The translations under genes were made by a program, and so were the position numbers. DNA of 63,981 nt, counting the filler, from an uncultured bacterium (GTDB lineage: Bacteria; CAYJOG01): NCBI GenBank assembly GCA_964371695.1. It is 19 parts of 19 records of this genome, joined end to end, with 100 filler letters (N's around TTAATTAATTAA, not from the genome) between each part and the next. Parts side by side here need not be neighbours in the genome. Positions count along the whole stretch, not along the records: positions 48,345 to 51,614 come from CAYJOG010000399.1; 18 more parts are not named here. One strand, written 5' to 3'. The notes under the pieces were generated by a model. The model was not told the DNA's origin and ran no database searches. It saw only the letters and a program-made list of their open reading frames with translations. Of this stretch, positions 11,580 to 60,050 are shown one piece after another; within the stretch, counting starts at the first letter, position 1; every line of letters starts with the position of its first letter.

Positions 11580-13130
11580 TCAGTGGCGGAAATGTCTCAT
11601 GCCGGTGAACAGCATGGCGATGTCCGCGTCTTTGGCCGCCTGAATGACTTCTTCATCCCGAATGCTGCCGCCGGGCTGAATGATGGCCGTCACGCCGTGG
11701 CGGGCCGCCAAGTCAATGCTGTCGCGGAACGGGAAAAACGCGTCAGAGGCCAGCACGGCCCCCTTTGCCCGGTGGGCCGCCACCTCCAGGGCATTCTTGA
11801 GCGAGGCCACACGACTCATCTGCCCCGCGCCAGTGCCCACGGTGGCGCCGTCTTTGGCCAGCACAATGGCGTTGCTTTTCACATGCTTCACCACAGCCCA
11901 GGCCAGGTACAGGTTTTCCAGTTCCGTCGGCGTGGGTTCCCGGCCCCCCACCGACTGCGGCTTGCCTTCAAACAACACGTTGTCCGGTGTCTGCACCAGC
12001 AGGCCCCCCGCCACGGGTTTCACGTCCAGCGCCCCCGCCAGCCTCTCGCTGCCCGCGTAATCCAGCAGGCGAATGCGCTGGTGTTTTTTACTGGCCGAAA
12101 GCACCGCCAGGGCCTGGGGCTCAAAGCCCGGCGCAATCACCGCCTCGATGAACGTCTTGGCCAGTTCCTGGGCCAGGTCCACCGTCACGGGCCGGTTAAA
12201 AGCCATGATGGAGCCAAAGGCCGCCTCCGGGTCCACGTCGCGGGCGTTGATGTAGGCCTGCAACAGCGACACATGGGTGGCCACGCCGGTGGGGTTGGTG
12301 TGTTTGATGACAACAGCGCAGGGGTTTTTGATTTCCAGCGACAGCAGCAGGGCAGCGTTCAGGTCCAGCAGGTTGTTGAAGCTGAGCTCCTTGCCCTGGT
12401 GCTGGGCCATGCGGGCAAAAGAAATGGCCCCCGCCGGTGTGGGCAGGGCATAAAAGGCCGCTTGCTGATGGGGGTTTTCGCCATAACGCAGGCCCATGTG
12501 CAACGTCAGGCCCAGGCCAAAACGCTGGGGCAACACGGGGGCTTCGGGCACCCTGCTTTGCAGATAACGGCTGATGGCGGCGTCGTAGGCAGCGGTGTGC
12601 TGATACACCTTGAGCGCCAGCAGACGGCGCAGCCCCAGGCCGCCGTCCGGGCCGGGGTCGTTCAGGGCGTCCAGCACCGTGCCGTAATCCGCTGGGTCCG
12701 TCACCACATAAACGCTCTGGTGATTTTTGGCGGCGCTGCGAATCATGCTGGGGCCGCCGATGTCGATGTTCTCCACCGCTTCTTCAAAAGTGCAGTCTGC
12801 TTTGGCCACGGTGGCTTCAAAGGGATAAAGATTCACGGCCACCACATCGATGGCCCCATAGCCCATCTTTTCCATGGCCTGAACGTGTTCAGGAATCTGA
12901 CGGTTATAGAGCAAACCGGCGTGAACGCGGGGGTGCAGGGTTTTCACACGACCATCCAGCATTTCGGGGTGGCCGGTGAACTGGCTCAGTTCGATGGCCT
13001 CCAGGCCCTGTTCCTGCAGGTGTCGAAAGGTGCCGCCCGTGGACAACAGGGTGAACCCCTGGGCCGCCAGACCCTGGGCAAAGGCCGCCAGACCCGTTTT
13101 ATCACTGACGCTTAAAAGCGCATATCTCAT
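11580..13130 (-). CDS. purH: Bifunctional AICAR transformylase/IMP cyclohydrolase
   Basis: ALLSVSDKTG, GRVKTLHP, ENIDIGGP, RYGENPHQ, ASDAFFPF and TGMRHFRH motifs. Confidence 0.98.
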   Translation of the reverse strand: MRYALLSVSDKTGLAAFAQGLAAQGFTLLSTGGTFRHLQEQGLEAIELSQFTGHPEMLDGRVKTLHPRVHAGLLYNRQIPEHVQAMEKMGYGAIDVVAVNLYPFEATVAKADCTFEEAVENIDIGGPSMIRSAAKNHQSVYVVTDPADYGTVLDALNDPGPDGGLGLRRLLALKVYQHTAAYDAAISRYLQSRVPEAPVLPQRFGLGLTLHMGLRYGENPHQQAAFYALPTPAGAISFARMAQHQGKELSFNNLLDLNAALLLSLEIKNPCAVVIKHTNPTGVATHVSLLQAYINARDVDPEAAFGSIMAFNRPVTVDLAQELAKTFIEAVIAPGFEPQALAVLSASKKHQRIRLLDYAGSERLAGALDVKPVAGGLLVQTPDNVLFEGKPQSVGGREPTPTELENLYLAWAVVKHVKSNAIVLAKDGATVGTGAGQMSRVASLKNALEVAAHRAKGAVLASDAFFPFRDSIDLAARHGVTAIIQPGGSIRDEEVIQAAKDADIAMLFTGMRHFRH

Positions 13131-22211: not shown

Positions 22212-23330
22212 CTACAACACCTGTCCCGCCACATGCCGCCAGAAAACCGGCTGGTTGGCCAGACCCGGAATGATGTCGCACTCCACCCAGCAGCCGGGGC
22301 AGGCCATCACCTCGCGCCGGGCGGTGGCGGCCTGGGGGCTGTGCCAGATCTGCGCCAGCGTGTGGGTCTTGAGGTTGCCCAGCAGCAGGTGGTTTTTGAG
22401 CGAGCAGGGGGTGATGTCGCCCTCTGGCGAGAGGCGCAGATAGGTGAAGGCCGCCATGCAGTTCAGACGGGGCGGGGGGGTGCCCGCCAGCAACTGGCGT
22501 TTCTCCTGCTGGTGCATGAACGACTGTGTGGCGTTGCGCAGCCGGGCGCTGAAGCCCCCCTCTGCCGCCAGCCCCAGGTTGCCGGGGGCGTGGGTGCGCA
22601 GGTCGGCGTAAAGCGCTTCCACCTCGGCTTTGCCAATGGGTGTGCGCAGCACAAAGGGGCTGCCGGTATTCAGGGGCCGCTCGCGGGTTTCGTGGTCTTC
22701 CTGGGCGAGGATCACCGTGTGCTGCGCCCCCAGGCGGTGGGCCACCTCGGCCACGCCGGCCACGGACTGGAGGTTTTTGGGCGTGATGGTCTGGTTCAGC
22801 CCCAGGGACAGATGGGGATGATGCCGGGCGAAATCCCGCACCAGTTCGGCGGCGGCGAGTGTGCGGGGCAGGGTGCCCTTTTTCTGGCGGATTTCGTCGT
22901 GCAGTTCATCGGCGGCGTCCAGGCTGATCTGCACGGTCACGTCACCCTCAAAGGGCGCGGCGATTTCCTTCAGCCAGGTTTCCAGCCTGTCCGCAAAGGT
23001 GCCGTTGGTGGTGAGGTAGAGCAGTCGGGGCCTAGCCCCGCTCAGCACGGCGCGGCAGAGTTCGGTGAAGTCCTGACGCAGAAACGGCTCGCCCCCGGTG
23101 AACCGCAGCAGGTGCAGTTGCTCAAAGCCGCCTGCGCCAAAAAAAACTGCGGCTTCTTCGGGCGTCACCTCGCCGGTGGTTTCGCCCTCGTGGGTGTAGC
23201 ACATCTCGCAGAAAAGATTGCAGCGCCGCGTGACCTTGAACACCAGCGACCGCACGGGGCTGGGGCGGCCCAGGGCGCGGCGCATGGTGTCGAGCGCCAC
23301 GTGGCTGGCCATGGTCAGAGTGCCGTTCAC
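22212..23330 (-). CDS. Radical SAM protein with SPASM/twitch domain
   Basis: CNLFCEMC, TGGEPFLR and TTNG motifs; C-terminal C...G.ITPC...CPGCWVEC. Confidence 0.92.
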   Translation of the reverse strand: MNGTLTMASHVALDTMRRALGRPSPVRSLVFKVTRRCNLFCEMCYTHEGETTGEVTPEEAAVFFGAGGFEQLHLLRFTGGEPFLRQDFTELCRAVLSGARPRLLYLTTNGTFADRLETWLKEIAAPFEGDVTVQISLDAADELHDEIRQKKGTLPRTLAAAELVRDFARHHPHLSLGLNQTITPKNLQSVAGVAEVAHRLGAQHTVILAQEDHETRERPLNTGSPFVLRTPIGKAEVEALYADLRTHAPGNLGLAAEGGFSARLRNATQSFMHQQEKRQLLAGTPPPRLNCMAAFTYLRLSPEGDITPCSLKNHLLLGNLKTHTLAQIWHSPQAATARREVMACPGCWVECDIIPGLANQPVFWRHVAGQVL

Positions 23331-24052
23331 CCCTTCAATTCTCGCCGAATCTGCTTCATTTCCCGCGAAACCTGCAACAAATTGCGGGGGCGCAGGCTGT
23401 GGCTGCGGCCCGAAATGCGCGGATAACTGGGAATCCCCACTTCTTTCACCCGCCCCCCGGCCCTCAGCAGTCGCAACACCACCTCGGCGTCAATAAACGG
23501 GCTTTCGCTGATGAAATCAAGCCCCGCCAGCTTGCTGCGGCGGAACAATTTGAGCGAGCAGGAGATGTCGTGGAAGGGCGTCTTGAACATCAGGCGCACG
23601 CGGAAGTTATACCAACGGCTGAGCAACGTGCGCAGGGGGCCGTTGGGGAAGGTGACCCGCCGGGTGATGACGGCGTCGAGGTTTTCGCTGAGCAGCAGCG
23701 GCACAAGGGTGTTCAGGTCCCGCACGTCAAACTGGTCGTCGCCGTCGCAAAACGCCACCAGTTCAAACCGGCTCGCCAGCCGCAGGCCGTCGCGGATGGT
23801 GAGGCCATAACCCAGGTTGCGCTCGTGCCGCAGGGTGTGGATTTTGGGGTTGGCGGCCATGAGGGCGGCGATGACTTCGTGGGCGTTGTCGGGGCTGGCG
23901 TCGTTGATGAGCCAGATTTCGTAATCGGGGCATTTGTCTTCAAACAGGGCCACGGCCTTTTCCACCACGTGGCCAATGGTGGCGGCGTCGTCATAAACCG
24001 GCGCAAAAAAACTCACGGCGGGCCAGGGATGGAAAGGGAGTGAATCGCTCAC
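23327..24052 (-). CDS. Glycosyltransferase family 2 (DPM1/ArnC-like)
   Basis: APVYDD, INDASPD, NLGYG, DGDDQFD and DISCSLKLFRR motifs; GTG start at 24052; overlaps the rSAM start. Confidence 0.88.
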   Translation of the reverse strand: MSDSLPFHPWPAVSFFAPVYDDAATIGHVVEKAVALFEDKCPDYEIWLINDASPDNAHEVIAALMAANPKIHTLRHERNLGYGLTIRDGLRLASRFELVAFCDGDDQFDVRDLNTLVPLLLSENLDAVITRRVTFPNGPLRTLLSRWYNFRVRLMFKTPFHDISCSLKLFRRSKLAGLDFISESPFIDAEVVLRLLRAGGRVKEVGIPSYPRISGRSHSLRPRNLLQVSREMKQIRRELKG

Positions 24053-24871: not shown

Positions 24872-25846
24872 TCAGGCGAACTCGTCTTCTTTCAGCGACA
24901 GACCCATTTTCTGGATTTTTTCCTTGATCTCCAGAAGGGATTTTTCGCCGAAGTTCTTGAGGTTCATGAGGTCTTCTTCGCTGCGGGCCATGATTTCGCC
25001 CACGGTGCGGATACCTTCGCGGCGCAGGCAGTTGAGCGCCCGCTGGCCCAGGTTGAGGTCTTCGATGCTGAGCTTGAGCAGGGCTTCTTTCTCTTGAGCG
25101 ACCTCTTGTTCGCGCTGGCGTTGCAGCAACATGCGCTGTTCGAAATCCACAAACAGACCAGCGTGGTCGCGCAGGATTTTGGCGGCTTCGCTGATGGCTT
25201 CTTCGGGAGTGGCGCAGCCGTTGGTGCGCACTTCCATGAAAAGTTTGTCGTAGTCGCTGCGGTCTTTCACGCGGGTTTCTTCAACCCAGAAGCGCACGTG
25301 CTTGACGGGTGAAAAGTCCACGTCCAGAAAAATCATGCCTTCTTCTTCGTTGACCCAGCCCTTGTGGTCTTCTTCAAGATGGCGATGCACCTGCTCCACC
25401 GTCAGGTAGCCCTTGTACATCACCACGCCCACTTCCAGTTCCAGCTCGCCCTTGGGGTCCACGATGGTAGCGATGTGATGATCGGGGTCGAGAATCTTGA
25501 TGTCGGGGTGCGCATCGAAATCGCCAGCCTTCACCTCACCCTTGCCTTTTTTGCGCAGCTTGAGGGGGTCAGGGTTCACCACCGTGGTGCGGATGGGCAT
25601 CTCGCGCAGGTTCAGCAGCATGGGCATGGTGTCTTCTTTGACAGAAGGCAGGTTGCTGAACTCGTGCAGCACGCCGCCCACTTTCACATAGAAGATGCCC
25701 GCGCCGCTGATGACGCTGAGCATGATGCGCCGCAGGCTGTTCCCCAGCGTCAGGCCAAAGCCCCGCTCCAGGGGCTCCACGCAAAACAGGCCACGGTTGC
25801 CCACCATTTCCACTTTCTGAATCTTTGGTTCCACCAGCTTGATCAT
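24872..25846 (-). CDS. rpoA: RNA polymerase subunit alpha
   Basis: EPLERGFG.TLGNSLRR, VLHEFS, FSPV and NFGEKSL motifs. Confidence 0.98.
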   Translation of the reverse strand: MIKLVEPKIQKVEMVGNRGLFCVEPLERGFGLTLGNSLRRIMLSVISGAGIFYVKVGGVLHEFSNLPSVKEDTMPMLLNLREMPIRTTVVNPDPLKLRKKGKGEVKAGDFDAHPDIKILDPDHHIATIVDPKGELELEVGVVMYKGYLTVEQVHRHLEEDHKGWVNEEEGMIFLDVDFSPVKHVRFWVEETRVKDRSDYDKLFMEVRTNGCATPEEAISEAAKILRDHAGLFVDFEQRMLLQRQREQEVAQEKEALLKLSIEDLNLGQRALNCLRREGIRTVGEIMARSEEDLMNLKNFGEKSLLEIKEKIQKMGLSLKEDEFA

Positions 25847-25866
25847 GTGTGTCTCTCCTAAGTGAA

Positions 25867-26475
25867 TTACCGGCTGTAATACTCGACGATAAGGCGTTCC
25901 TGCACTTCAAGGTCAAGGTCGCTGCGTTCGGGCAGGCGCACCACGGAACCCTTCAGGTTCTGGGGGTCCACTTTCACCCAGCTGGGATATCCCTCCTGGG
26001 CGGCGGCCTGGCTGGCCTGCACAATCACGGCGGGGGGTTTGTTTTCTTTGCCCGGCTTGATAGTGATTTCGTCTCCGGGTTTGATCAGGTAACTGGGAAT
26101 GTTCACCTTTTTGCCGTTGACGAGGAAATGGTTGTGCCCCACCAGTTGGCGGGCCTGCTGGCGGCTGGCCGCAAAACCCATGCGGAACACGGTGTTGTCC
26201 AGGCGGCGCTCCAGCAGTTGCACCAGAATTTCGCCGGTCACGCCCAGCAGGCGGTCGGCCTCCTGGTAATAGTTGCGAAACTGCCGCTCGAGCACACCGT
26301 AATACCGTTTCAGCTTTTGCTTTTCGCGCAGCTGCACCTGATATTCGCTGGCTTTGCGCATGCGCTTGCCGTGTTGGCCGGGGGCGGTCTTGCGCCGCTC
26401 AAGGTTTACCTTGGGGTGCAGCGCCACGCCTTCTCGGCGGGATTGTTTAACGATTGGTCCTGTATATCTTGCCAC
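25867..26475 (-). CDS. rpsD: 30S ribosomal protein S4
   Basis: MARYTGP, QLREKQK, LERRLDN and IVEYYSR motifs. Confidence 0.98.
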   Translation of the reverse strand: MARYTGPIVKQSRREGVALHPKVNLERRKTAPGQHGKRMRKASEYQVQLREKQKLKRYYGVLERQFRNYYQEADRLLGVTGEILVQLLERRLDNTVFRMGFAASRQQARQLVGHNHFLVNGKKVNIPSYLIKPGDEITIKPGKENKPPAVIVQASQAAAQEGYPSWVKVDPQNLKGSVVRLPERSDLDLEVQERLIVEYYSR

Positions 26476-26481
26476 TGGAAA

Positions 26482-26871
26482 TTACACCCTCCTGCGCTTT
26501 TTGGGACGGCACCCGTTGTGAGGCGTGGGTGTTACGTCGCGAATGGTATTGATGTCAAAACCCAAACTGCCCAGGGTGCGCACGGCCCCCTCGCGGCCCG
26601 AGCCGGGGCCTTTCACCACAATGTCAAGCTGGCGCACGCCGTGCTCCAGCGCCGCCTGGCCCGCCCGCTCGGCGGCCATCTGCGCGGCATAGGGCATGCC
26701 CTTGCGGTTTCCCTTGAAACCCACCGATCCAGCACTGGCCCACACCAGTGTGTTGCCGGTGGGGTCGGTGATGGTGACGATGGTGTTGTTGAAAGTGCTC
26801 TTGACGTGCGCCACGGCAGTGGGCACGTTCTTTTTGACTTTCTTTTTCTTTTTGACTTCTTTTTTCGCCAT
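26482..26871 (-). CDS. rpsK: 30S ribosomal protein S11
   Basis: [16 protein letters not shown] and [12 protein letters not shown] motifs. Confidence 0.98.
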
Positions 26872-26925
26872 GAGGGGAACCTTTCCGCGGTGGCCCGATG
26901 TTGCCGCGCCCGTGTGTGATCTGCC

Positions 26926-27309
26926 TTATTTTTTCGTCGCTTTTTTGTTGAGACCGCCCACCGCGCCCTTTTTGGGGCCTTTGCGGGTGCGGGCGTTGGT
27001 GTGGGTGCGCTGACCGCGTGAGGGCAAACCCAGCCGGTGGCGCATGCCCCGGTAACTGCCCACTTCACCCAGTCGCTTGATGTTCATCATCACGTCTTTT
27101 TTCAGGTCGCCTTCCACCTTGATCTGGGTGATGAGGCCGCGCACCTTGGCCATTTCCTCGTCGGTCATGTCCTTCACGCGCTTGAGGGGGTCCAGGCCCG
27201 CCTGTTTCACGATGTTCCTGGCAGTGGTGTCCCCAATGCCATAAATGTAGGTGAGGGAAATCACCACACGTTTGTTGTCTGGAATATCAACACCGGCGAT
27301 ACGGGCCAT
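26926..27309 (-). CDS. rpsM: 30S ribosomal protein S13
   Basis: [10 protein letters not shown] ... [14 protein letters not shown]; true start 27309 (ORF track over-extends). Confidence 0.98.
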
Positions 27310-27335
27310 TGGTTTTCTCCTTTTGGGTTGGGCGC

Positions 27336-27449
27336 TCAGCCCTGGCGCTGGTTGTGCTTGCGCGCCTCGCAGATGATCCGCACAACACCCTTGCGGCGGA
27401 CAACCTTGCATTTGGGACAGATGGGTTTGACGCTGGCGCGGACTTTCAT
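27336..27449 (-). CDS. rpmJ: 50S ribosomal protein L36 (Zn-binding type)
   Basis: Manual translation [37 protein letters not shown]. Confidence 0.97.
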
Positions 27450-27469
27450 GGCTGACTCCTGGATTCTTT

Positions 27470-27691
27470 TTATTTCTGATAGCGGTAGGTGATGCGTCCC
27501 CTTTTGAGGTCATAGGGGCTGAGTTCGATTTTTACTTTGTCTCCCATGAGAATGCGGATGTTGTGCTTGCGGATTTTGCCCGAAACGTGGGCCAGAACTT
27601 CCATACCGTTTTCCAGCTTTACCTTGAACATGGCGTTGGGCAAAGGATCCACAACCACTCCATCTACACTAATAGCATCTTCATTGCTCAC
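27470..27691 (-). CDS. infA: Translation initiation factor IF-1
   Basis: [13 protein letters not shown] and ELSPYDL..GRITYR motifs. Confidence 0.98.
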
Positions 27692-42202: not shown

Positions 42203-42400
42203 ATGGTTTTTTCTTCGACAAACTCCAGCTTCTCCTCTTACAATCGTGTTCAACAGCGCTTCACAGCGGCGGCGCAACAGGCACCGGAGCCTGAAAGGAT
42301 TTCCACTCTCCCTTTCACGCCTAACCGGAGGCCCACTGTGAAAACCAGCCCGCTCCTTTCCCCGATTGCTTTCGTCAGGGGCTTGGGGGTGCGCTCATGA
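42203..42400 (+). CDS. Small upstream ORF (65 aa)
   Basis: AGGAGG 6 nt before the ATG; stop overlaps the next start (ATGA); no recognisable domain. Confidence 0.45.
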   Translation: MVFSSTNSSFSSYNRVQQRFTAAAQQAPEPERISTLPFTPNRRPTVKTSPLLSPIAFVRGLGVRS

Positions 42401-43995
42401 GCGGGGGCGTGGGTGTGGATCAAACCCTGCCGCTTCTGGACCGGGTGGACGCAACGGGGCGATATTCTCCTGACCCGACAGAGGGCCATGCCGTGGTGGT
42501 GGCCCGGACGGGGGGACTCATTCCGCCGCGCCCGCCGGGCGCCGGTGAGCAATACCGTTTTCATTTTGACATGACCAAGTGCATCGGCTGCAAGTGTTGC
42601 GAGGTGGCCTGCGCCGAGCAGAACAACAACCCGGCTGGCATTTCGTGGCGGCGGGTGGGCGAAATCGAAGGCGGAACCTGGCCCCACACCAAGCGGCATT
42701 ACGTCTCCATGGGTTGCAATCACTGCGTGGACCCCGCCTGCCTGAGCGGCTGCCCGGTGGAGGCCTACACAAAAGCCGAAGACACCGGCCTGGTGCTGCA
42801 CAGCGCCCAGCAGTGCATCGGTTGCCAGTATTGCACCTGGAACTGCCCCTATGGCGTGCCCCAGTTCAACCCCGAACGCAAAGTGGTGGGCAAGTGCGAC
42901 ATGTGTCACGGGCGACTGAAAGATGGTCAGGCCCCGGCCTGTGTTTCGTCTTGCCCCCAGGGGGCCATCACGGTGGAACTGGTGCGGGTGGAAGACTGGA
43001 AAAACAGCACCCGGCGCGACGCCGAAGCCCCCGGTGTGCCAGAGTCGGGCCTCACGCTTTCCACCACGCGCATCACCCTGCCCTCCTCCATGCCGGTGGA
43101 AATGCTCAAGGCCGACGCCCACCTGCTCAAACCCGAACACCCCCACACACCCCTCATTGCGCTGACGGCGCTCAGCCAGATTGGCCTGGGCGCGGCGCTG
43201 GGCATGTGGCTCATCAGCCTGTTTTCTCCGGTGCCTCTTGCGGCCATGGCCCTCACGCTCACGGCCATGGGCCTGGGGCTGGCGGCGTCGTTACTGCACC
43301 TGGGCCGCCCCATTCATGCCATGCGGGCCATGCGGGGCTGGCGCACAAGCTGGCTCAGCCGCGAGGCCATCGGCCTGGGAGCCTTCATGGGGCTGCTGCA
43401 CCTGTGGCTGGGAGGCGTGGCCCTGAAAGACCACCTGAGCGTTCCTGTCCCCGGCGGCCTGCTGTGGGTTTTGGGCGGCCTCACGCTTTTGGCTGGCGCG
43501 GCGGGGGTATACGCCAGCGCCCGTATTTATCTGGTGCCCGCCCGGCCAGCTTGGTCTACCCGCTACACCCTGCCCCATTTCTTTTTGGGCGGACTGGCTG
43601 CGGGCCTGCTGGGTGTGATGGCCCTTTCGCCCGGTGCGCCCGCGCTGGTGCCGGGGCTGGCTGCTTTTTGCAGCGCCGCCGAGGTGGGGCTTTTCGGCTG
43701 GCTGCTGCTGCACCTGTTGCACAGCGAAGCCCCGGAACTGCGTAACGCCGGCCTGCTTTATACCCGGCGTTTTCGCAACATGAGCGCCCTGCGCCTGTTG
43801 TTGCTGCTCACCGCCGGTGTGGCCCTGCCGGTGTATGGCCTGTTGCAGGAACTCTCCCCCACCCTCTGGGCCGCTGCGGGCGCGCTCTCGCTGCTCACGC
43901 TGCTGATGGGGCGTTTCCTGTTTTTCGTCACCGTGGTGCCCCGCAACATTCCTGGCCATTTCTTCAGCGGTTCGGCCACAGGAGGGACTCACTAA
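42397..43995 (+). CDS. 4Fe-4S dicluster (DmsB-like) fused to DmsC/YnfH membrane anchor
   Basis: CIGCKCCEVAC, CNHCVDPAC...CP, CIGCQYCTWNCPY and KCDMC...PAC..CP, then SLLHLGRP and SWLSRE within about eight TM segments. Confidence 0.92.
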   Translation: MSGGVGVDQTLPLLDRVDATGRYSPDPTEGHAVVVARTGGLIPPRPPGAGEQYRFHFDMTKCIGCKCCEVACAEQNNNPAGISWRRVGEIEGGTWPHTKRHYVSMGCNHCVDPACLSGCPVEAYTKAEDTGLVLHSAQQCIGCQYCTWNCPYGVPQFNPERKVVGKCDMCHGRLKDGQAPACVSSCPQGAITVELVRVEDWKNSTRRDAEAPGVPESGLTLSTTRITLPSSMPVEMLKADAHLLKPEHPHTPLIALTALSQIGLGAALGMWLISLFSPVPLAAMALTLTAMGLGLAASLLHLGRPIHAMRAMRGWRTSWLSREAIGLGAFMGLLHLWLGGVALKDHLSVPVPGGLLWVLGGLTLLAGAAGVYASARIYLVPARPAWSTRYTLPHFFLGGLAAGLLGVMALSPGAPALVPGLAAFCSAAEVGLFGWLLLHLLHSEAPELRNAGLLYTRRFRNMSALRLLLLLTAGVALPVYGLLQELSPTLWAAAGALSLLTLLMGRFLFFVTVVPRNIPGHFFSGSATGGTH

Positions 43996-44860
43996 TGCCC
44001 AAAACCATGACGCCTCTCAAATCGTTAATCTCCCGCGCCGCCTGGCTGGCGGGGCTGGACACGCTGGAAGAAAAATATGCCTACGGCCACGACCAGAAAC
44101 ACGGCTTCATGGCCGCCGAAAAAATCCCCGACACCTGGACCAAAACCACCTGCGGTTATTGCTCGGTGGGCTGCGGCATGGAAATCGGCGTGAAAGACGG
44201 CCGTGCGGTGAGTGTGCGGGGAGACGAAACCCACCCCGTCAACCGGGGCAAGTTGTGCCCCAAGGGCCTGTCCGAGCACTACATTCTCGACGCTCACAAC
44301 CGGGCCACCCACCCCCTACGCAAAAACAAAAACGGCCGACTGTCGCCCATCGGCTGGGACGACGCTCTTCAGGAAATGGCCACCACCTTCCGCGCCACCA
44401 TCCAGAAACACGGCCCCGGCTCGGTGGCGGTGATTGGCACCGGCCAACTGCTGAGCGAAGAGTTTTACGCCCTGGGAAAACTGGTGCGCCTTGGCATTGG
44501 CGCGGCCCACAACGACGGCAACACCACGCTTTGCATGGCCAGCGCCGTGGCGGGTTACAAACGCTCCTTTGGCAGCGACGGCCCGCCGGGAGCCTATGAC
44601 GACCTGGAAAAAGCAGACGTAATTCTGCTGGTGGGGGCCAATATCGCCGACAACCACCCCATTCTCTGCCACCGCATGGCCCAGAACCCCGGCGCTTTTG
44701 TGATCGTGGTGGACCCCCGCGTGAGCAAAACCGCCATGATGGCGAACCTGCACCTGCCCATCAAAAGCCGCACCGACGTGCAACTCATCAACGGCCTGCT
44801 GGGCTGGCTGATGCAGGAAAATCGCCTCAACCAGGATTTCATAGACGCCCACACCGAAGG
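43995..44860 (+). CDS. Molybdopterin oxidoreductase, NasA/NarB-type nitrate reductase (3' partial)
   Basis: TCGYCSVGC, G.LCPKG, GQLLSEE.Y, NTTLCMASA and FGSDGPP motifs; no Tat RR motif. Confidence 0.88.
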
Positions 44861-48244: not shown

Positions 48245-48344
48245 NNNNNNNNNNNNNNNNNNNNNNNNNNNNNNNNNNNNNNNNNNNNTTAATTAATTAA
48301 NNNNNNNNNNNNNNNNNNNNNNNNNNNNNNNNNNNNNNNNNNNN

Positions 48345-48617
48345 GTCCCCCTTCCAGGCCTGGCCGCCCAGTTTTTCGAGCAGCTTGATGTCCCAGGCCT
48401 GGGGATAACCGCCGTAGGGCTTGGTCTCCACGTTGTTCCAGAACATTTCCTCCTGACCCTTGCCGCTGGTCCACGTGGTTTTACAGGCCACCGAGCAGGT
48501 CTGGCAGTCAATGCACTTGTTGGTGTCGAAGATGTAGGCGATCTGCCGCTTCGGACGTGAGTCCTCGTAGGGATACTCCATCTTCCTTTTCAATTGCCAG
48601 TTGTTGACTTGAGCCAT
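48345..48617 (-). CDS. nxrB: Nitrite oxidoreductase/periplasmic nitrate reductase beta subunit (3' partial)
   Basis: [28 protein letters not shown] and [14 protein letters not shown] match the periplasmic NxrB-type N-terminus. Confidence 0.88.
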
Positions 48618-48623
48618 GGCGGG

Positions 48624-51614
48624 TTACCCTTTCTTCACATAGCCGCCCTGAATGAACTTCTTCAGGGAGGCGTTCTCGTAGGTGGGGCGCAGGCCTTTGG
48701 CGGCAGGTTCCCAAAGTCCCTTGCCGTTCAGACCCCCGTCTTCTTTCTTGGTCACCTTCACAAAAGACTCGCGGGGCGCGCCGGTGGGGCAGTGCACGTC
48801 GGGGGCGAAACCCACGCCCACCGTCTGGCCAAAGAGGTCTTTTCGCACCAGGGTTTCGGTCATCCAGGTGGGCTTCAGATAACCCCTTGTGCAGCTCTGG
48901 TGGCTGCCTGAGCGGAACATGGACAGGTAACCCGTGGCATCGTTGCGGGCCAAGCCATCGGCGCGGGTGAGGTGACCCTTGCGCGAGCCGTAGGTGGCGG
49001 GGGCCACGTTGTGCCACATGCGCAACACGCCCCGTGGCGTACCGGGATAGAAGCGGCAGCGCACCTGCAACCGGGCCATGTCATAGGCCTCGTCGGTGGC
49101 TTTCCATCCGTGATAGGGGCTGGAGTGGGGGTCGGCGTCAATGTACACATAATCCCCGTCGTTCAGTCCCATCTCGCGGGCGTCCCTGGGGTTGATGTCC
49201 ACATACATTTCGTTGATGTAGGGCTGCCGTTTGTCGCGGCGGCGCATGTCGCCAAAGGGGCCAAACCAGATGGCCACGATGTCGATGTCCACGCCCGACG
49301 TGTGAGAGCCATGGCGGTATTTGGGGGTGTGGAAGATGAACTTGTGGCCCTCGGCCATGAGGGGGTGTTTGGTGAGCTTCACCTCGGCCCAGGTTTTTTG
49401 CACGTGGCGGGCCTGGCGCGTGTCGGCGTCGATCTGCTCGCGGGGCACACCATAGGCCTCTGGCCCCTTGGGCTTGATGAGGGGATGGGGCTTGGCCACG
49501 ATCACGTTGGGTTCATAAAACGTGCTGTCAATCGGCTCGCGGTGAATGGGCAGGTTCTCACCGCTGTCGCGGAACTCCGGCTCTTCGCGGTAAAACTCCA
49601 GGCGACCTGTTTTGGTGTAATAGGGTTTGTTTTCGATGGTCTGCTCATAACCGCAGCTCTTGGGCGTGGTGCGGGTCATCATGAGGGCAGGCACGCCCTT
49701 TTTGGCGTCGGCGATGAGTTTTTCCATGTCATAACCGGCCGTGACGTTGCTGGTGGCCAGCACCCGTTTGAGATAGGGCTTGCCGTTGTCGGTATCCACA
49801 AAATGCCACATCTGGGCAAACCGATGGTCGCCGGTGAGCTTGGCCAGGGCCTTGGCCAGACCCGCCGCCACCTGCATGTCGCTGCGGGTGTCAAAAATGC
49901 GCGGCAGGGGGGTGTCGGGATAGATGTAAAGGAACGGGTTGGTCACCGAAAGCGTCACGTCGGGCAGTTTCATTTCGGCCCAACTGTCAATGGCATAGAT
50001 GATGTCGCCGTATTCGCAGCTTGGTGTCCACCACCACTCGTTGATGGCCACGATTTCGGTTTTCTTCATGGTGTTTACCACGGTTTCGTAGTGACCCTTG
50101 GCGTTGCCGATGAGGCTGTTGGAATTGCTGACATGAATGGCCTTGGTGGGCGTGGGAATATGGCTCTTGCCCGTGATCAGGTGCCCCCCCATGCGCAGCA
50201 CGGTGTCGCCGTGGTTCCAGTAGTGCACCGATTCGGCCTTGAAATAGGGCCTTTTGGCCACCGGCTGTGTGGGGTCCAGTTGCGGGTGGAAGGGGTCTTC
50301 CATGATGTAATTGGGCAGGCCGCTGAAACAGGCGGCGCGGTAGTTGCCCGCGTAGCTGCCCACGTTGCCGCCGGGGTGTCCCACGTTGTCGGTGAGGGCC
50401 GCCAGCAAAAAGACCGAGCGGTCCTTGAGGTCGCTGTTGAAAAACTGGTTGGGCCCCATGCCGTTGCAGAACAGGGTTTTGGTCCTGTTTTTGGCGATTT
50501 GCCGGGCGATGGAAAGAATGCCCTCCACGGGGGCCCAGGTGAGTTCGGACACCGTTTTGGGGTCGTAGCTGTCCATCAGCACCTGCTTGACCTGGGCGAA
50601 CACCGGCTTGACGGTGATTTCCTTGCCGTCCACCAGCTTGACAGGGAAGGCACCCTCCAGCGCCGGGTCAATGCCCAGTTTGCGGAAGTGCTCGCCAAAG
50701 TTGTCGCGGCACACGGCCTTGAAGCCCTTGGTCTTGAGGTCGTACACCACATAGTCGCCCCAGGCGTCGCGCATGGCCTGAGGAATGATGGGGCCGCCCT
50801 GCAACAGCGAGGGGGCTGGTTTTTCGCCCTCTTTGAGCAGCGTCACGTGGTTGCTCAGGGGCTGGTTGACATAGGCGGGGAACACGTCCTTGGCCCGCAA
50901 CATTTCGCCGGTGTCTTCGCGCACCAGAAGCGGGAGGTCGGTGTTGCCCTTCACGGCTTTTTCGTCATAGAGCTTTTCTTTGACAATCACGTGGGCAAAA
51001 CCCAGCGCCAGCGCCGGCGTGGTGCCGGGGCGCACAATCAGCACTTCATCACCCTTGCTGGAAGTCGCGCTGTATTCGCAGGCGATGACCACCACCTTGG
51101 CACCCTTCATGCGGGCTTCGGTGAGCCAGTGGGCGTCGGGCATTTTGGTGGTGATCCAGTTCATGCCCCACACCAGCACCAGGTTGGCGTGCTCGGTGTT
51201 GCACAGGTCGAACTCATGGCTCTGCTGGCCGGTGACCATGGGGTGACCGGGGGGAAGGTCGGTGTGCCAGGAGTAGTTGTCCCAGCCCCGCGCCCCCACC
51301 GATTTGTCGGGGCCAAGACCCCGGATGTTGTTGTCCAGCAGGGCCATGCTGTTGGCCAGGCGGTATTGGGCGAAAATGCGGGTGGCCCCCAGGGCGGCCA
51401 TGCCGCCACGGAACTTGAGCACCTGCACACCGGCCCCGCCGGTGGCCGCCACCATGGCCTCGTCATAACCCTGGGCCTTGAGGCGGGCCACGCCCATGTC
51501 GCCGTTATAGGTCTCGGCGATGTTCTTGAGCGCCCTGGCGTGATATTCGTGGGCCAGGTCAAAACTCACGGCGATGAAAGGATCCTTGCCACGGTTGAGG
51601 AACTGCTCCTGCAC
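48624..51614 (-). CDS. nxrA: Nitrite oxidoreductase/periplasmic nitrate reductase alpha subunit (5' partial, type II DMSO reductase family)
   Basis: [12 protein letters not shown] (Mo-ligating Asp region), KMPDAHW, YAGNY, TGRLEFY and TPKYRH motifs; 6 nt upstream of the beta subunit. Confidence 0.88.
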
Positions 51615-51787
51615 NNNNNNNNNNNNNNNNNNNNNNNNNNNNNNNNNNNNNNNNNNNNTTAATTAATTAANNNNNNNNNNNNNNNNNNNNNNNNNNNNNN
51701 NNNNNNNNNNNNNNCATGAAGCCTCAGTAAATGTTCTACCATTTCCGAAAACGCTCTATGCCCCAAAGGGGAGAGGGTAATTTGGTT

Positions 51788-58386: not shown

Positions 58387-60050
<1,664 letters not shown>

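Follow-up and report, generated by a model that had tools for sequence, protein, structure and literature searches.

The stretch of DNA analyzed here (63,981 nucleotides, positions 1-63981, called the window throughout) was taken from assembly GCA_964371695.1 of an uncultured bacterium (CAYJOG01), and our subject is a pair of adjoining gene fragments between positions 48345 and 51614 (record CAYJOG010000399.1), which encode parts of the catalytic alpha subunit and the iron-sulfur (Fe-S) beta subunit of a molybdoenzyme resembling nitrite oxidoreductase (NXR) and the periplasmic Nar-type enzymes (pNar). The window contains 18 spacers of the form N45-TTAATTAATTAA-N45, against 0 expected in 100 shuffles, and when it is cut at N, 20 ACGT pieces result, 999-3,415 bases long and ordered by decreasing length, two of them parted by just 10 N. 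The window thus strings together some 19 short, unlinked contigs (2.3-3.4 kb) from a fragmented assembly; because of this, any reading across the spacers, such as operons, synteny or a "genome without X" statement, is an artefact. Positions 48345-51614 are exactly one contig of 3,270 bp with a GC content of 0.61 (the nxr contig), on which an nxrA/narG-like gene is represented by its 3' 86% and the neighboring nxrB/narH-like gene by its first quarter. The features of this contig and its borders are as follows:

48245..48344, no strand: artificial, non-biological spacer N45-TTAATTAATTAA-N45 that parts the nxr contig from the preceding contig (spacer count and sequence)
48345..48617, minus strand: Fe-S beta subunit (NxrB/NarH-like), first 91 residues, cut at the contig end (PDB 7b04_A, TIGR03478)
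48411..48440, minus strand: motif at beta residues 60-69, with the same letters in Kuenenia NxrB (alignment)
48483..48515, minus strand: all-Cys CxxCxxCxxxC, the first cluster motif, beta residues 35-45 (translation and NxrB alignment)
48618..48623, minus strand: 6-nt spacer CCCGCC between the alpha stop codon (TAA) and the beta ATG (sequence read)
48624..51614, minus strand: catalytic alpha subunit (NxrA/NarG-like, with a molybdenum-bis(pyranopterin guanine dinucleotide) cofactor, Mo-bisPGD), 996 residues, stop codon at 48624-48626 (open reading frame, PDB 7b04_B, Pfam PF00384)
51258..51275, minus strand: YSWHTD codons, alpha fragment residues 114-119 (alignment with 7b04_B)
51615..51714, no strand: artificial spacer that parts the nxr contig from the next contig (spacer count and sequence)

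The alpha frame ends in TAA and runs for 996 codons without a stop up to the contig end, where it passes into N. The initial annotation, which was made from the sequence alone, had described a molybdoenzyme fragment followed after 6 nt by an Fe-S subunit; the open reading frames and the sequence bear this out, and all three motifs that it quoted are present in the translations (one in alpha, two in beta). It had also noted that the twin-arginine translocation (Tat) leader is cut off, which is correct; the cuts in both genes are contig ends and not window ends. In a search against all PDB chains, alpha matched NxrA of Kuenenia (7b04_B) with an E value of 1e-207 and 696 bits, query residues 4-994 aligning with residues 160-1145 of the 1148 in the chain, and judged by this alignment to a solved NxrA the match is far beyond chance. 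Because the alignment starts at chain residue 160, about 156-160 N-terminal residues of alpha, including the Tat signal and the motif for the FS0 cluster, have been lost. The matches to PcrA (4ydd_A, 4.6e-57, 197 bits) and EbdA (2ivf_A, 4.1e-34, 121 bits) were partial, and that to E. coli NarG (1q16_A, 1e-25) covered query residues 107-268 only, about 160 residues. The NCBIfam matches of the pair were confined to the general models for type II alpha and beta subunits, both under their cut-offs (TIGR03479, DMSO_red_II_alp, 1.9e-75 for alpha; TIGR03478, DMSO_red_II_bet, 2.8e-23 for beta), and alpha scored 108 bits against the narG model TIGR01580 (cut-off 1084) and 133 bits against the EbdA model (cut-off 2000). 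In the alignment with 7b04_B, D119 of the fragment falls on Asp275, which is the Mo ligand of Kuenenia NxrA (PMC8387239; this and the other papers are cited here from excerpts), and the contrast of WHTD with WHGD drawn by the initial annotation holds against Kuenenia (nyswhtd over nytwhgd).

The beta fragment is short, full-length beta subunits of relatives having a median of 375 residues, and it contains the NxrB-type N-terminal extension and the first of four Fe-S motifs, the other three lying past the contig end. It aligned with Kuenenia NxrB (7b04_A) at 4.8e-37, residues 2-83 on 2-83, whereas the alignments of PcrB, EbdB and NarH begin only at residue 20-23 (NarH at 1.3e-13, from residue 23), so that the N-terminal extension, to which the initial annotation had drawn attention, is one that the fragment has in common with NxrB. 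PcrB reads WRNVETAPGLG at the place of the motif at residues 60-69. In the first cluster motif, Kuenenia NxrB reads CIACQTCTMAC at the aligned place and is likewise all-Cys. The initial annotation had used the all-Cys motif to favor a Nitrotoga-like branch over Nitrospira; the contrast itself, Asp in N. defluvii and Cys in Nitrotoga, agrees with PMC6050957, but the motif singles out no Nitrotoga branch, because Kuenenia NxrB has it too. Just upstream of the 6-nt spacer, within the 3' end of alpha, lies a purine-rich GAAGAAAGGG, and the spacing of alpha and beta is compatible with coupled translation.

Relatives and enzyme class

A search of 5.8 billion proteins, in which 8,000 candidates were scored, gave at least 2,816 proteins with E <= 1e-20 to alpha. 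The cluster of the window alpha itself is recorded with a contig of 21,736 bases. The closest non-self matches (P0002 and P0003) were 71% identical, and the next, at 69-61%, carried the source names Deltaproteobacteria, Planctomycetota, Leptospiraceae, Myxococcales, Nitrospirae, Beggiatoa and Stieleria. When one genome per GTDB species was scanned (at least 599 pattern matches), at least 534 stretches were found to encode alpha relatives; the best 80 loci of these are 56-65% identical to alpha and lie in metagenome-assembled genomes (MAGs) labelled as many phyla, and no sequence identical to the window alpha was among the GTDB species matches listed. Relatives occur in lineages that are not nitrifiers, including Kiritimatiellae, Bacteroidota, Myxococcota, Planctomycetota, Acidobacteriota and Thioploca/Parabeggiatoa. 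An outgroup sample of 401 Planctomycetota genomes, searched at E <= 1e-60, had an alpha match in 90 genomes, in identity tiers of 52-64%, 43-46% and 37-42%. The 9 genomes searched in the GTDB class to which the "Brocadiia" MAG belongs yielded no canonical anammox NXR; it was found in the phylum-wide sample, where a locus of the lowest tier (L117) scored 2380 bits to 7b04_B over 1,147 residues and is therefore a Kuenenia-type NxrA; a locus of the middle tier (L113) scored 1442 bits.

A FastTree tree was built from 126 rows, namely the window alpha, the alphas of the 80 loci, 35 further genome loci and P0002-P0011, leaving out L081-L085 (duplicates), L086, L107 and L111 (partial) and P0012-P0120, and 40 of the 126 rows, picked to span the clades, were used for a quick IQ-TREE tree; both trees were made without Nitrotoga, Nitrospira, Nitrospina, Hydrogenobacter, Clr, Ser and Ddh sequences. 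In both, the window alpha falls in a clade with support of 100 and a stem of 0.66-0.69, which holds all 80 loci and L022 and stands apart from the Kuenenia-type rows and the middle tier. Both trees thus show alpha outside the canonical Kuenenia-type NXR group, which supports the initial annotation. L022 is a contig of Candidatus Parabeggiatoa 4572_84 and is 62% identical to the window alpha; a "Beggiatoa 4572_84 nitrate reductase" is listed beside Nitrotoga and Hydrogenobaculum in PMC8387239. It shares one strongly supported clade with the window alpha, yet belongs to another subclade. The subclade of the window alpha (13 rows with support of 100 in FastTree, 11 rows with support of 99 in IQ-TREE) contains the metagenome proteins P0002-P0009 (at most 71% identical), then a Kiritimatiellae MAG, an unclassified MAG and a Verrucomicrobiota MAG. 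The enzyme tree is at odds with organismal taxonomy, which indicates frequent transfer. Taken on its sequence, the pair is a new and fairly divergent member of a known, widespread clade, at most 71% identical to anything beyond its own cluster. This weakens the novelty that the initial annotation implied, since the enzyme type is present in the genomes of hundreds of non-nitrifier species and NXR-like genes in MAGs other than those of nitrite-oxidizing bacteria (NOB) are already in print (PMC9306079, PMC10732223).

By homology, the pair almost certainly belongs to the periplasmic NXR/pNar lineage, i.e., to the nitrate/nitrite oxidoreductases with Mo-bisPGD in the family of type II dimethyl sulfoxide (DMSO) reductases. 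The initial annotation had distinguished it from cytoplasmic NarGH, and this is upheld by both subunits, as alpha matched NxrA at 1e-207 against 1e-25 for NarG, and beta aligned with NxrB from residue 2 against residue 23 for NarH. A cytoplasmic NarGH or Nitrobacter-type NXR is ruled out by the partial NarG match, by the 108 bits against 1084 for TIGR01580 and by the NarH value of 1.3e-13. NarGH of E. coli (PDB 1Q16) has the superfamily, the Asp-ligated Mo centre and the overall reaction chemistry in common with the window pair; NarG has no functional Tat export signal and carries His/Cys3 at FS0 (PMC8387239).

The Kuenenia NXR-ABC (PDB 7B04; Chicano et al. 2021, PMC8387239) has the Mo-ligand Asp in common with the window alpha, and its Tat signal, FS0 Cys3/Asp and gamma subunit of the EB_dh type are shared with relatives of the window pair. 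A canonical anammox (Kuenenia-type) NXR is ruled out by the branch with support of 100 and a length of 0.66-0.69 and by the identity of about 41% to L117. The window alpha also differs from the Kuenenia motifs WHGD and QAPGHP at both places, and Kuenenia is an anammox organism, whereas the nxr contig has no anammox context. The 41% is close to the value of about 40% published for Kuenenia NxrA against Nitrotoga and Hydrogenobaculum (PMC8387239). Ca. Nitrotoga fabula's NXR (Kitzinger et al. 2018, PMC6050957) was compared by its published description only: it is periplasmic, lies outside the Nitrospira/Nitrospina/anammox group and has Cys and not Asp in the NxrB cluster motif. Its Mo site reads Y-4x-D-11x-QM where the window alpha has Y-4x-D-11x-QS, and Nitrotoga is a proven nitrite oxidizer, whereas the window host is known from sequence alone. 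A position of the window alpha in a Nitrotoga-like branch, as initially suggested, is plausible. N. defluvii NxrB has an Asp in the cluster motif and an 8-residue insertion, and the all-Cys window beta is unlike it as described in that paper (PMC6050957).

Two further observations were made among the tree rows. Five loci from the Planctomycetota sample (L112-L115 and L123, from genomes G255, G207, G285, G358 and G300 of 2.0-2.5 Mb) encode an NxrA-like protein of 1118-1122 residues that, with 1442 bits to 7b04_B and an identity of 42-44% to the window alpha, lies between the Kuenenia type and the window clade; the group is separate from the window clade in FastTree, and G300 and G255 also hold a copy or fragment of the window-clade type. 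Three records with "MAG TPA_asm" titles (L009, L067 and L078) name uncultured Enterobacteriaceae, Heliobacteriaceae or Bifidobacteriaceae, while their alphas nest among Acidobacteriota/Pseudomonadota MAGs, the tree path between L078 and the Acidobacteria MAG sequence L072 being about 0.08. These titles may be unreliable labels rather than the real hosts.

Operon in relatives and predicted electron path

The organization of the enzyme was examined in its relatives, where neighboring proteins were clustered and one representative per cluster was scanned with Pfam. Beta follows directly after alpha in 74 of the 80 loci, and the other components were found as follows:

Gamma subunit, EB_dh (PF09459): 43 of the 61 loci that extend 3.5 kb or more downstream
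Delta subunit, NarJ-like (PF02613): 46 of the 61 loci that extend 3.5 kb or more downstream
Multiheme cytochrome c (cytochrome c families): 28 of the 80 loci
Cytochrome b (cytochrome b families): 12 of the 80 loci
MoaA, MoeA and MobA (molybdenum cofactor biosynthesis): some loci

The order alpha-beta-gamma(EB_dh)-delta(NarJ-like) is common in the Parabeggiatoa-type clade. A twin-arginine motif is present in all 10 full-length sequences aligned (8 of the window clade and 2 of the canonical-type groups), and the FS0 region reads C-A-P-N-D-T-H-N-C in 8 of 8 window-clade sequences and C-S-P-N-D-T-H-A-C in the Kuenenia-type row; an FS0 of the Cys3/Asp type and a proposed substrate Asn have been described for Kuenenia (PMC8387239). 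From these relatives we infer Tat export, FS0, the gamma heme, the chaperone and the cytochrome partners for the window enzyme as well. The enzyme would then be exported by the Tat system and work in the periplasm, its cofactor being inserted by a NarJ/TorD-like chaperone. Nitrate or nitrite would bind at a Mo centre ligated by the Asp at D119 of the fragment, and electrons would travel via FS0 of the alpha subunit and the four Fe-S clusters of beta, of which the first motif alone is seen here. Judging from the operons of relatives, they would go onward to a heme-b gamma subunit of the ethylbenzene-dehydrogenase type and then to c-type cytochromes.

Host lineage and source habitats

Three groups of housekeeping markers, each on a contig of its own elsewhere in the window, bear on the host:

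11583-13130, minus strand: purH
24872-27691, minus strand: rpoA-rpsD-rpsK-rpsM-rpmJ-infA
58389-60041, minus strand: ligA

The closest matches of RpoA were 98% and 87% identical (Logan proteins), and the remainder of the 120 best matches were at most 46% identical, the named ones belonging to Bacillota, Eremiobacterota and WOR-1 at 42-45%. PurH had matches of 100% and 68% and then at most 56%, and LigA one of 72%, with nothing above 49% after it in a search of representatives of 15 billion proteins. The RpoA clusters in the ESM Atlas were dominated by Bacillota. RpoA of the window was 39-42% identical to those of the five genomes with the nearest alphas, and the hosts of the Parabeggiatoa-type clade are by this measure unrelated to the window host. 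The RpoA matches, the ESM Atlas clusters and the five-genome comparison place the host in no phylum, and a scan of the whole window with Rfam gave 0 matches, so that it offers no rRNA for classification. The marker identities therefore indicate that the host is no sequenced nitrite oxidizer and no close relative of any named genome. The initial annotation had allowed for a known nitrite oxidizer as host, and the RpoA identities of at most 46% beyond two close matches speak against this. The host looks like a member of a very poorly sampled, deep-branching lineage. Genes for Lnt, DegP, PGI and galactokinase are also present in the window, the first two of which suggest a diderm cell and the last two sugar metabolism. 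A radical-SAM/SPASM protein (22215-23489, minus strand) had weak best matches (1e-18, far under the cut-offs) to NirJ2 and AhbD-type maturases of heme biosynthesis; it could hint at a siroheme-dependent heme pathway and is not diagnostic.

The nxr contig was found in four sediment metagenomes of one study, with shares of 0.44-0.83, and with small shares in three groundwater metagenomes of a second study. Two of the sediment runs had exact short pieces on the contig at a depth of 3.5-7.5. Because all the runs are Logan contigs, their depth says nothing about co-variation of abundance. No RNA data set was among the runs listed for the contig, which has no bearing on whether it is expressed. Two groundwater contigs of 2,640 and 3,003 bases (runs X5 and X6, window 48345-51159) showed 190 differences in 2,451 bases and 212 in 2,815 bases, i.e., about 92% identity, and a population closely related in its nxrAB is thus present in another habitat, sampled by a second study.

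Direction of the reaction and origin of the contig

In our view, the enzyme most likely serves nitrate respiration, or redox-balancing nitrate reduction, in sediment or groundwater low in oxygen, a preference that we hold only modestly. Nitrate reduction is favored because the clade extends into lineages for which nitrification is not known, because the sources are sediment and groundwater, because the window has heterotroph-like genes (PGI and galactokinase) and because related clades contain nitrate reducers. Part of the Nitrotoga sister clade consists of putative nitrate reductases (NARs) of known nitrate reducers, with the periplasmic NAR of Hydrogenobacter as a characterized member (PMC6050957), and the nitrate reducers Thermogutta and Methanoperedens fall in the same major clade (PMC10732223). 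For NXR-like genes in non-NOB MAGs, excerpts of the published studies leave the direction open (PMC9306079, PMC10732223). A number of points tell against this reading of the enzyme and its host. No sequence feature tells the direction, as the initial annotation had stated, and the Kuenenia enzyme is reversible, catalyzing both reactions in vitro (PMC8387239). Nitrotoga, a true nitrite oxidizer, is reported to fall in a clade sister to the canonical NXRs (PMC6050957), and it shows that nitrite oxidation can be sustained by a related enzyme. A tblastn search with the gamma, delta, cytochrome c and cytochrome b proteins of relatives found none of them in the 64-kb window, a result that is uninformative and also expected, because the contig ends inside beta. 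Nitrate reduction might be covered by another enzyme, since a Nap/Nas-type fragment, described below, lies on another contig. Finally, with a tetranucleotide correlation of 0.906 to the pooled rest of the window, the nxr contig ranks lowest among the full-length pieces.

If the host were instead an unrecognized nitrite oxidizer, electrons would reach a terminal oxidase by way of the heme-b gamma subunit and cytochrome c. The NxrA and NxrB matches, which confirm the periplasmic NXR lineage, the FS0 Cys3/Asp motif of the relatives, which agrees with the Kuenenia enzyme, and the place of Nitrotoga among putative NARs, from which it has been suggested that uncharacterized members might be novel nitrite oxidizers (PMC6050957), are all in keeping with this, and the lineage would be new, as the host is no known NOB (named RpoA matches at most 46%, 120 best matches). 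However, the sequence at hand, only about 60 kb of unlinked contigs, shows no genes for carbon fixation, oxidases or cytochromes, the clade extends across hundreds of species whose lineages are not known as nitrifiers, the runs are sediment and groundwater metagenomes, and alpha lies outside the Kuenenia-type NXR group. We regard such a host as unlikely, and it seems quite unlikely that this deep-branching sediment lineage, with its relative carrying an nxrAB of about 92% identity in groundwater, lives from nitrite oxidation. The enzyme may also be bidirectional in vivo, reducing nitrate when donors are in excess and oxidizing nitrite, in a supplementary or detoxifying and non-autotrophic manner, when oxygen or another high-potential acceptor is available. 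This would fit the two-way catalysis of the Kuenenia NXR (PMC8387239), the non-autotrophic nitrite oxidation raised for NXR-like genes in heterotroph MAGs (PMC9306079) and the cytochrome partners of relatives (c-type in 28 and cytochrome b in 12 of 80 loci), which could carry electrons either way; yet sequence hardly separates it from nitrate reduction and the host offers no direct evidence for it, and we rate bidirectional use as rather unlikely.

The remaining alternatives concern the owner and the substrate of the enzyme. A binning contaminant, i.e., a real enzyme of another organism in the same sediment community, might be suspected because the contig is only 3.27 kb long and has no housekeeping gene, the window is built from unlinked contigs, the tetranucleotide rank is low, and the relatives of alpha are nearer (71% at best, followed by an unbroken series from 69% down to 56%), whereas the host markers drop to 45-56% beyond one or two close matches. 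The last difference is, however, expected from horizontal transfer anyway, by which the gene probably reached the host lineage, as in most members of the clade. The initial annotation had proposed a tetranucleotide comparison with the bin, and the profile fits: 0.906 is inside the range of the other 19 pieces (0.867-0.967, median 0.945), whereas the homologous segments (3.3 kb) taken from 25 other genomes, whose GC content is 0.57-0.65, reached only 0.62-0.82. The GC content at third codon positions (0.82) is also similar to that of other genes in the window. The composition favors a native gene without proving it; we think it likely that the gene is native to the binned organism, and contamination improbable. 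A type II enzyme of the DMSO-reductase family for chlorate, perchlorate, selenate, dimethylsulfide or ethylbenzene is conceivable in that the NCBIfam alpha match is to the general type II model only and under its cut-off, the Beggiatoa entry of the clade is a name, and the excerpts of PMC8387239, PMC6050957, PMC9306079 and PMC10732223 contain no assay of this clade. On scores, however, the best similarity is not to the Pcr or Ebd enzymes, the comparison having covered these two types only: PcrA gave 197 bits (partial) and EbdA 121 bits against 696 bits over the full length for NxrA. The relatives keep the Asn proposed to coordinate nitrate or nitrite, which is Ile in ethylbenzene dehydrogenase (PMC8387239), and another substrate is therefore highly improbable.

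NXR-like/pNar operons are common in non-nitrifier genomes (at least 534 GTDB stretches; 90 of 401 Planctomycetota genomes) and have already been discussed in print (PMC9306079, PMC10732223, PMC6050957), so that the finding alone matters little. The host lineage, and not the enzyme, is the interesting part, as any respiratory enzyme helps to sketch the lifestyle of a poorly sampled lineage. For annotation pipelines and readers alike, nxrAB alone cannot support the call of a nitrite oxidizer. If autotrophy and a high-potential electron chain were present in a full genome, the lineage would become a candidate new nitrite oxidizer, and nitrite oxidation, if true, would add a new lineage to the known nitrite oxidizers.

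The initial annotation had stressed that the genome showed no other visible nitrifier markers. This carries little weight, because the 64-kb window is a concatenation of unlinked contigs and the absence of markers from about 60 kb of such sequence is uninformative; moreover, a second molybdoenzyme module lies on another window contig (41561-44860). It occupies positions 42325-44860 on the plus strand and consists of a fusion of a DmsB-like 4Fe-4S protein (PF13247) and a DmsC-like anchor (PF04976), followed by the first 288 residues of a Nap/Nas-type catalytic subunit. The N-terminus of this fragment has no visible twin-arginine motif. Its best PDB match was Desulfovibrio NapA (2jio, 5e-60) and its best NCBIfam matches were NasA and NapA at about 1e-57, so the bin may have another nitrate reductase.

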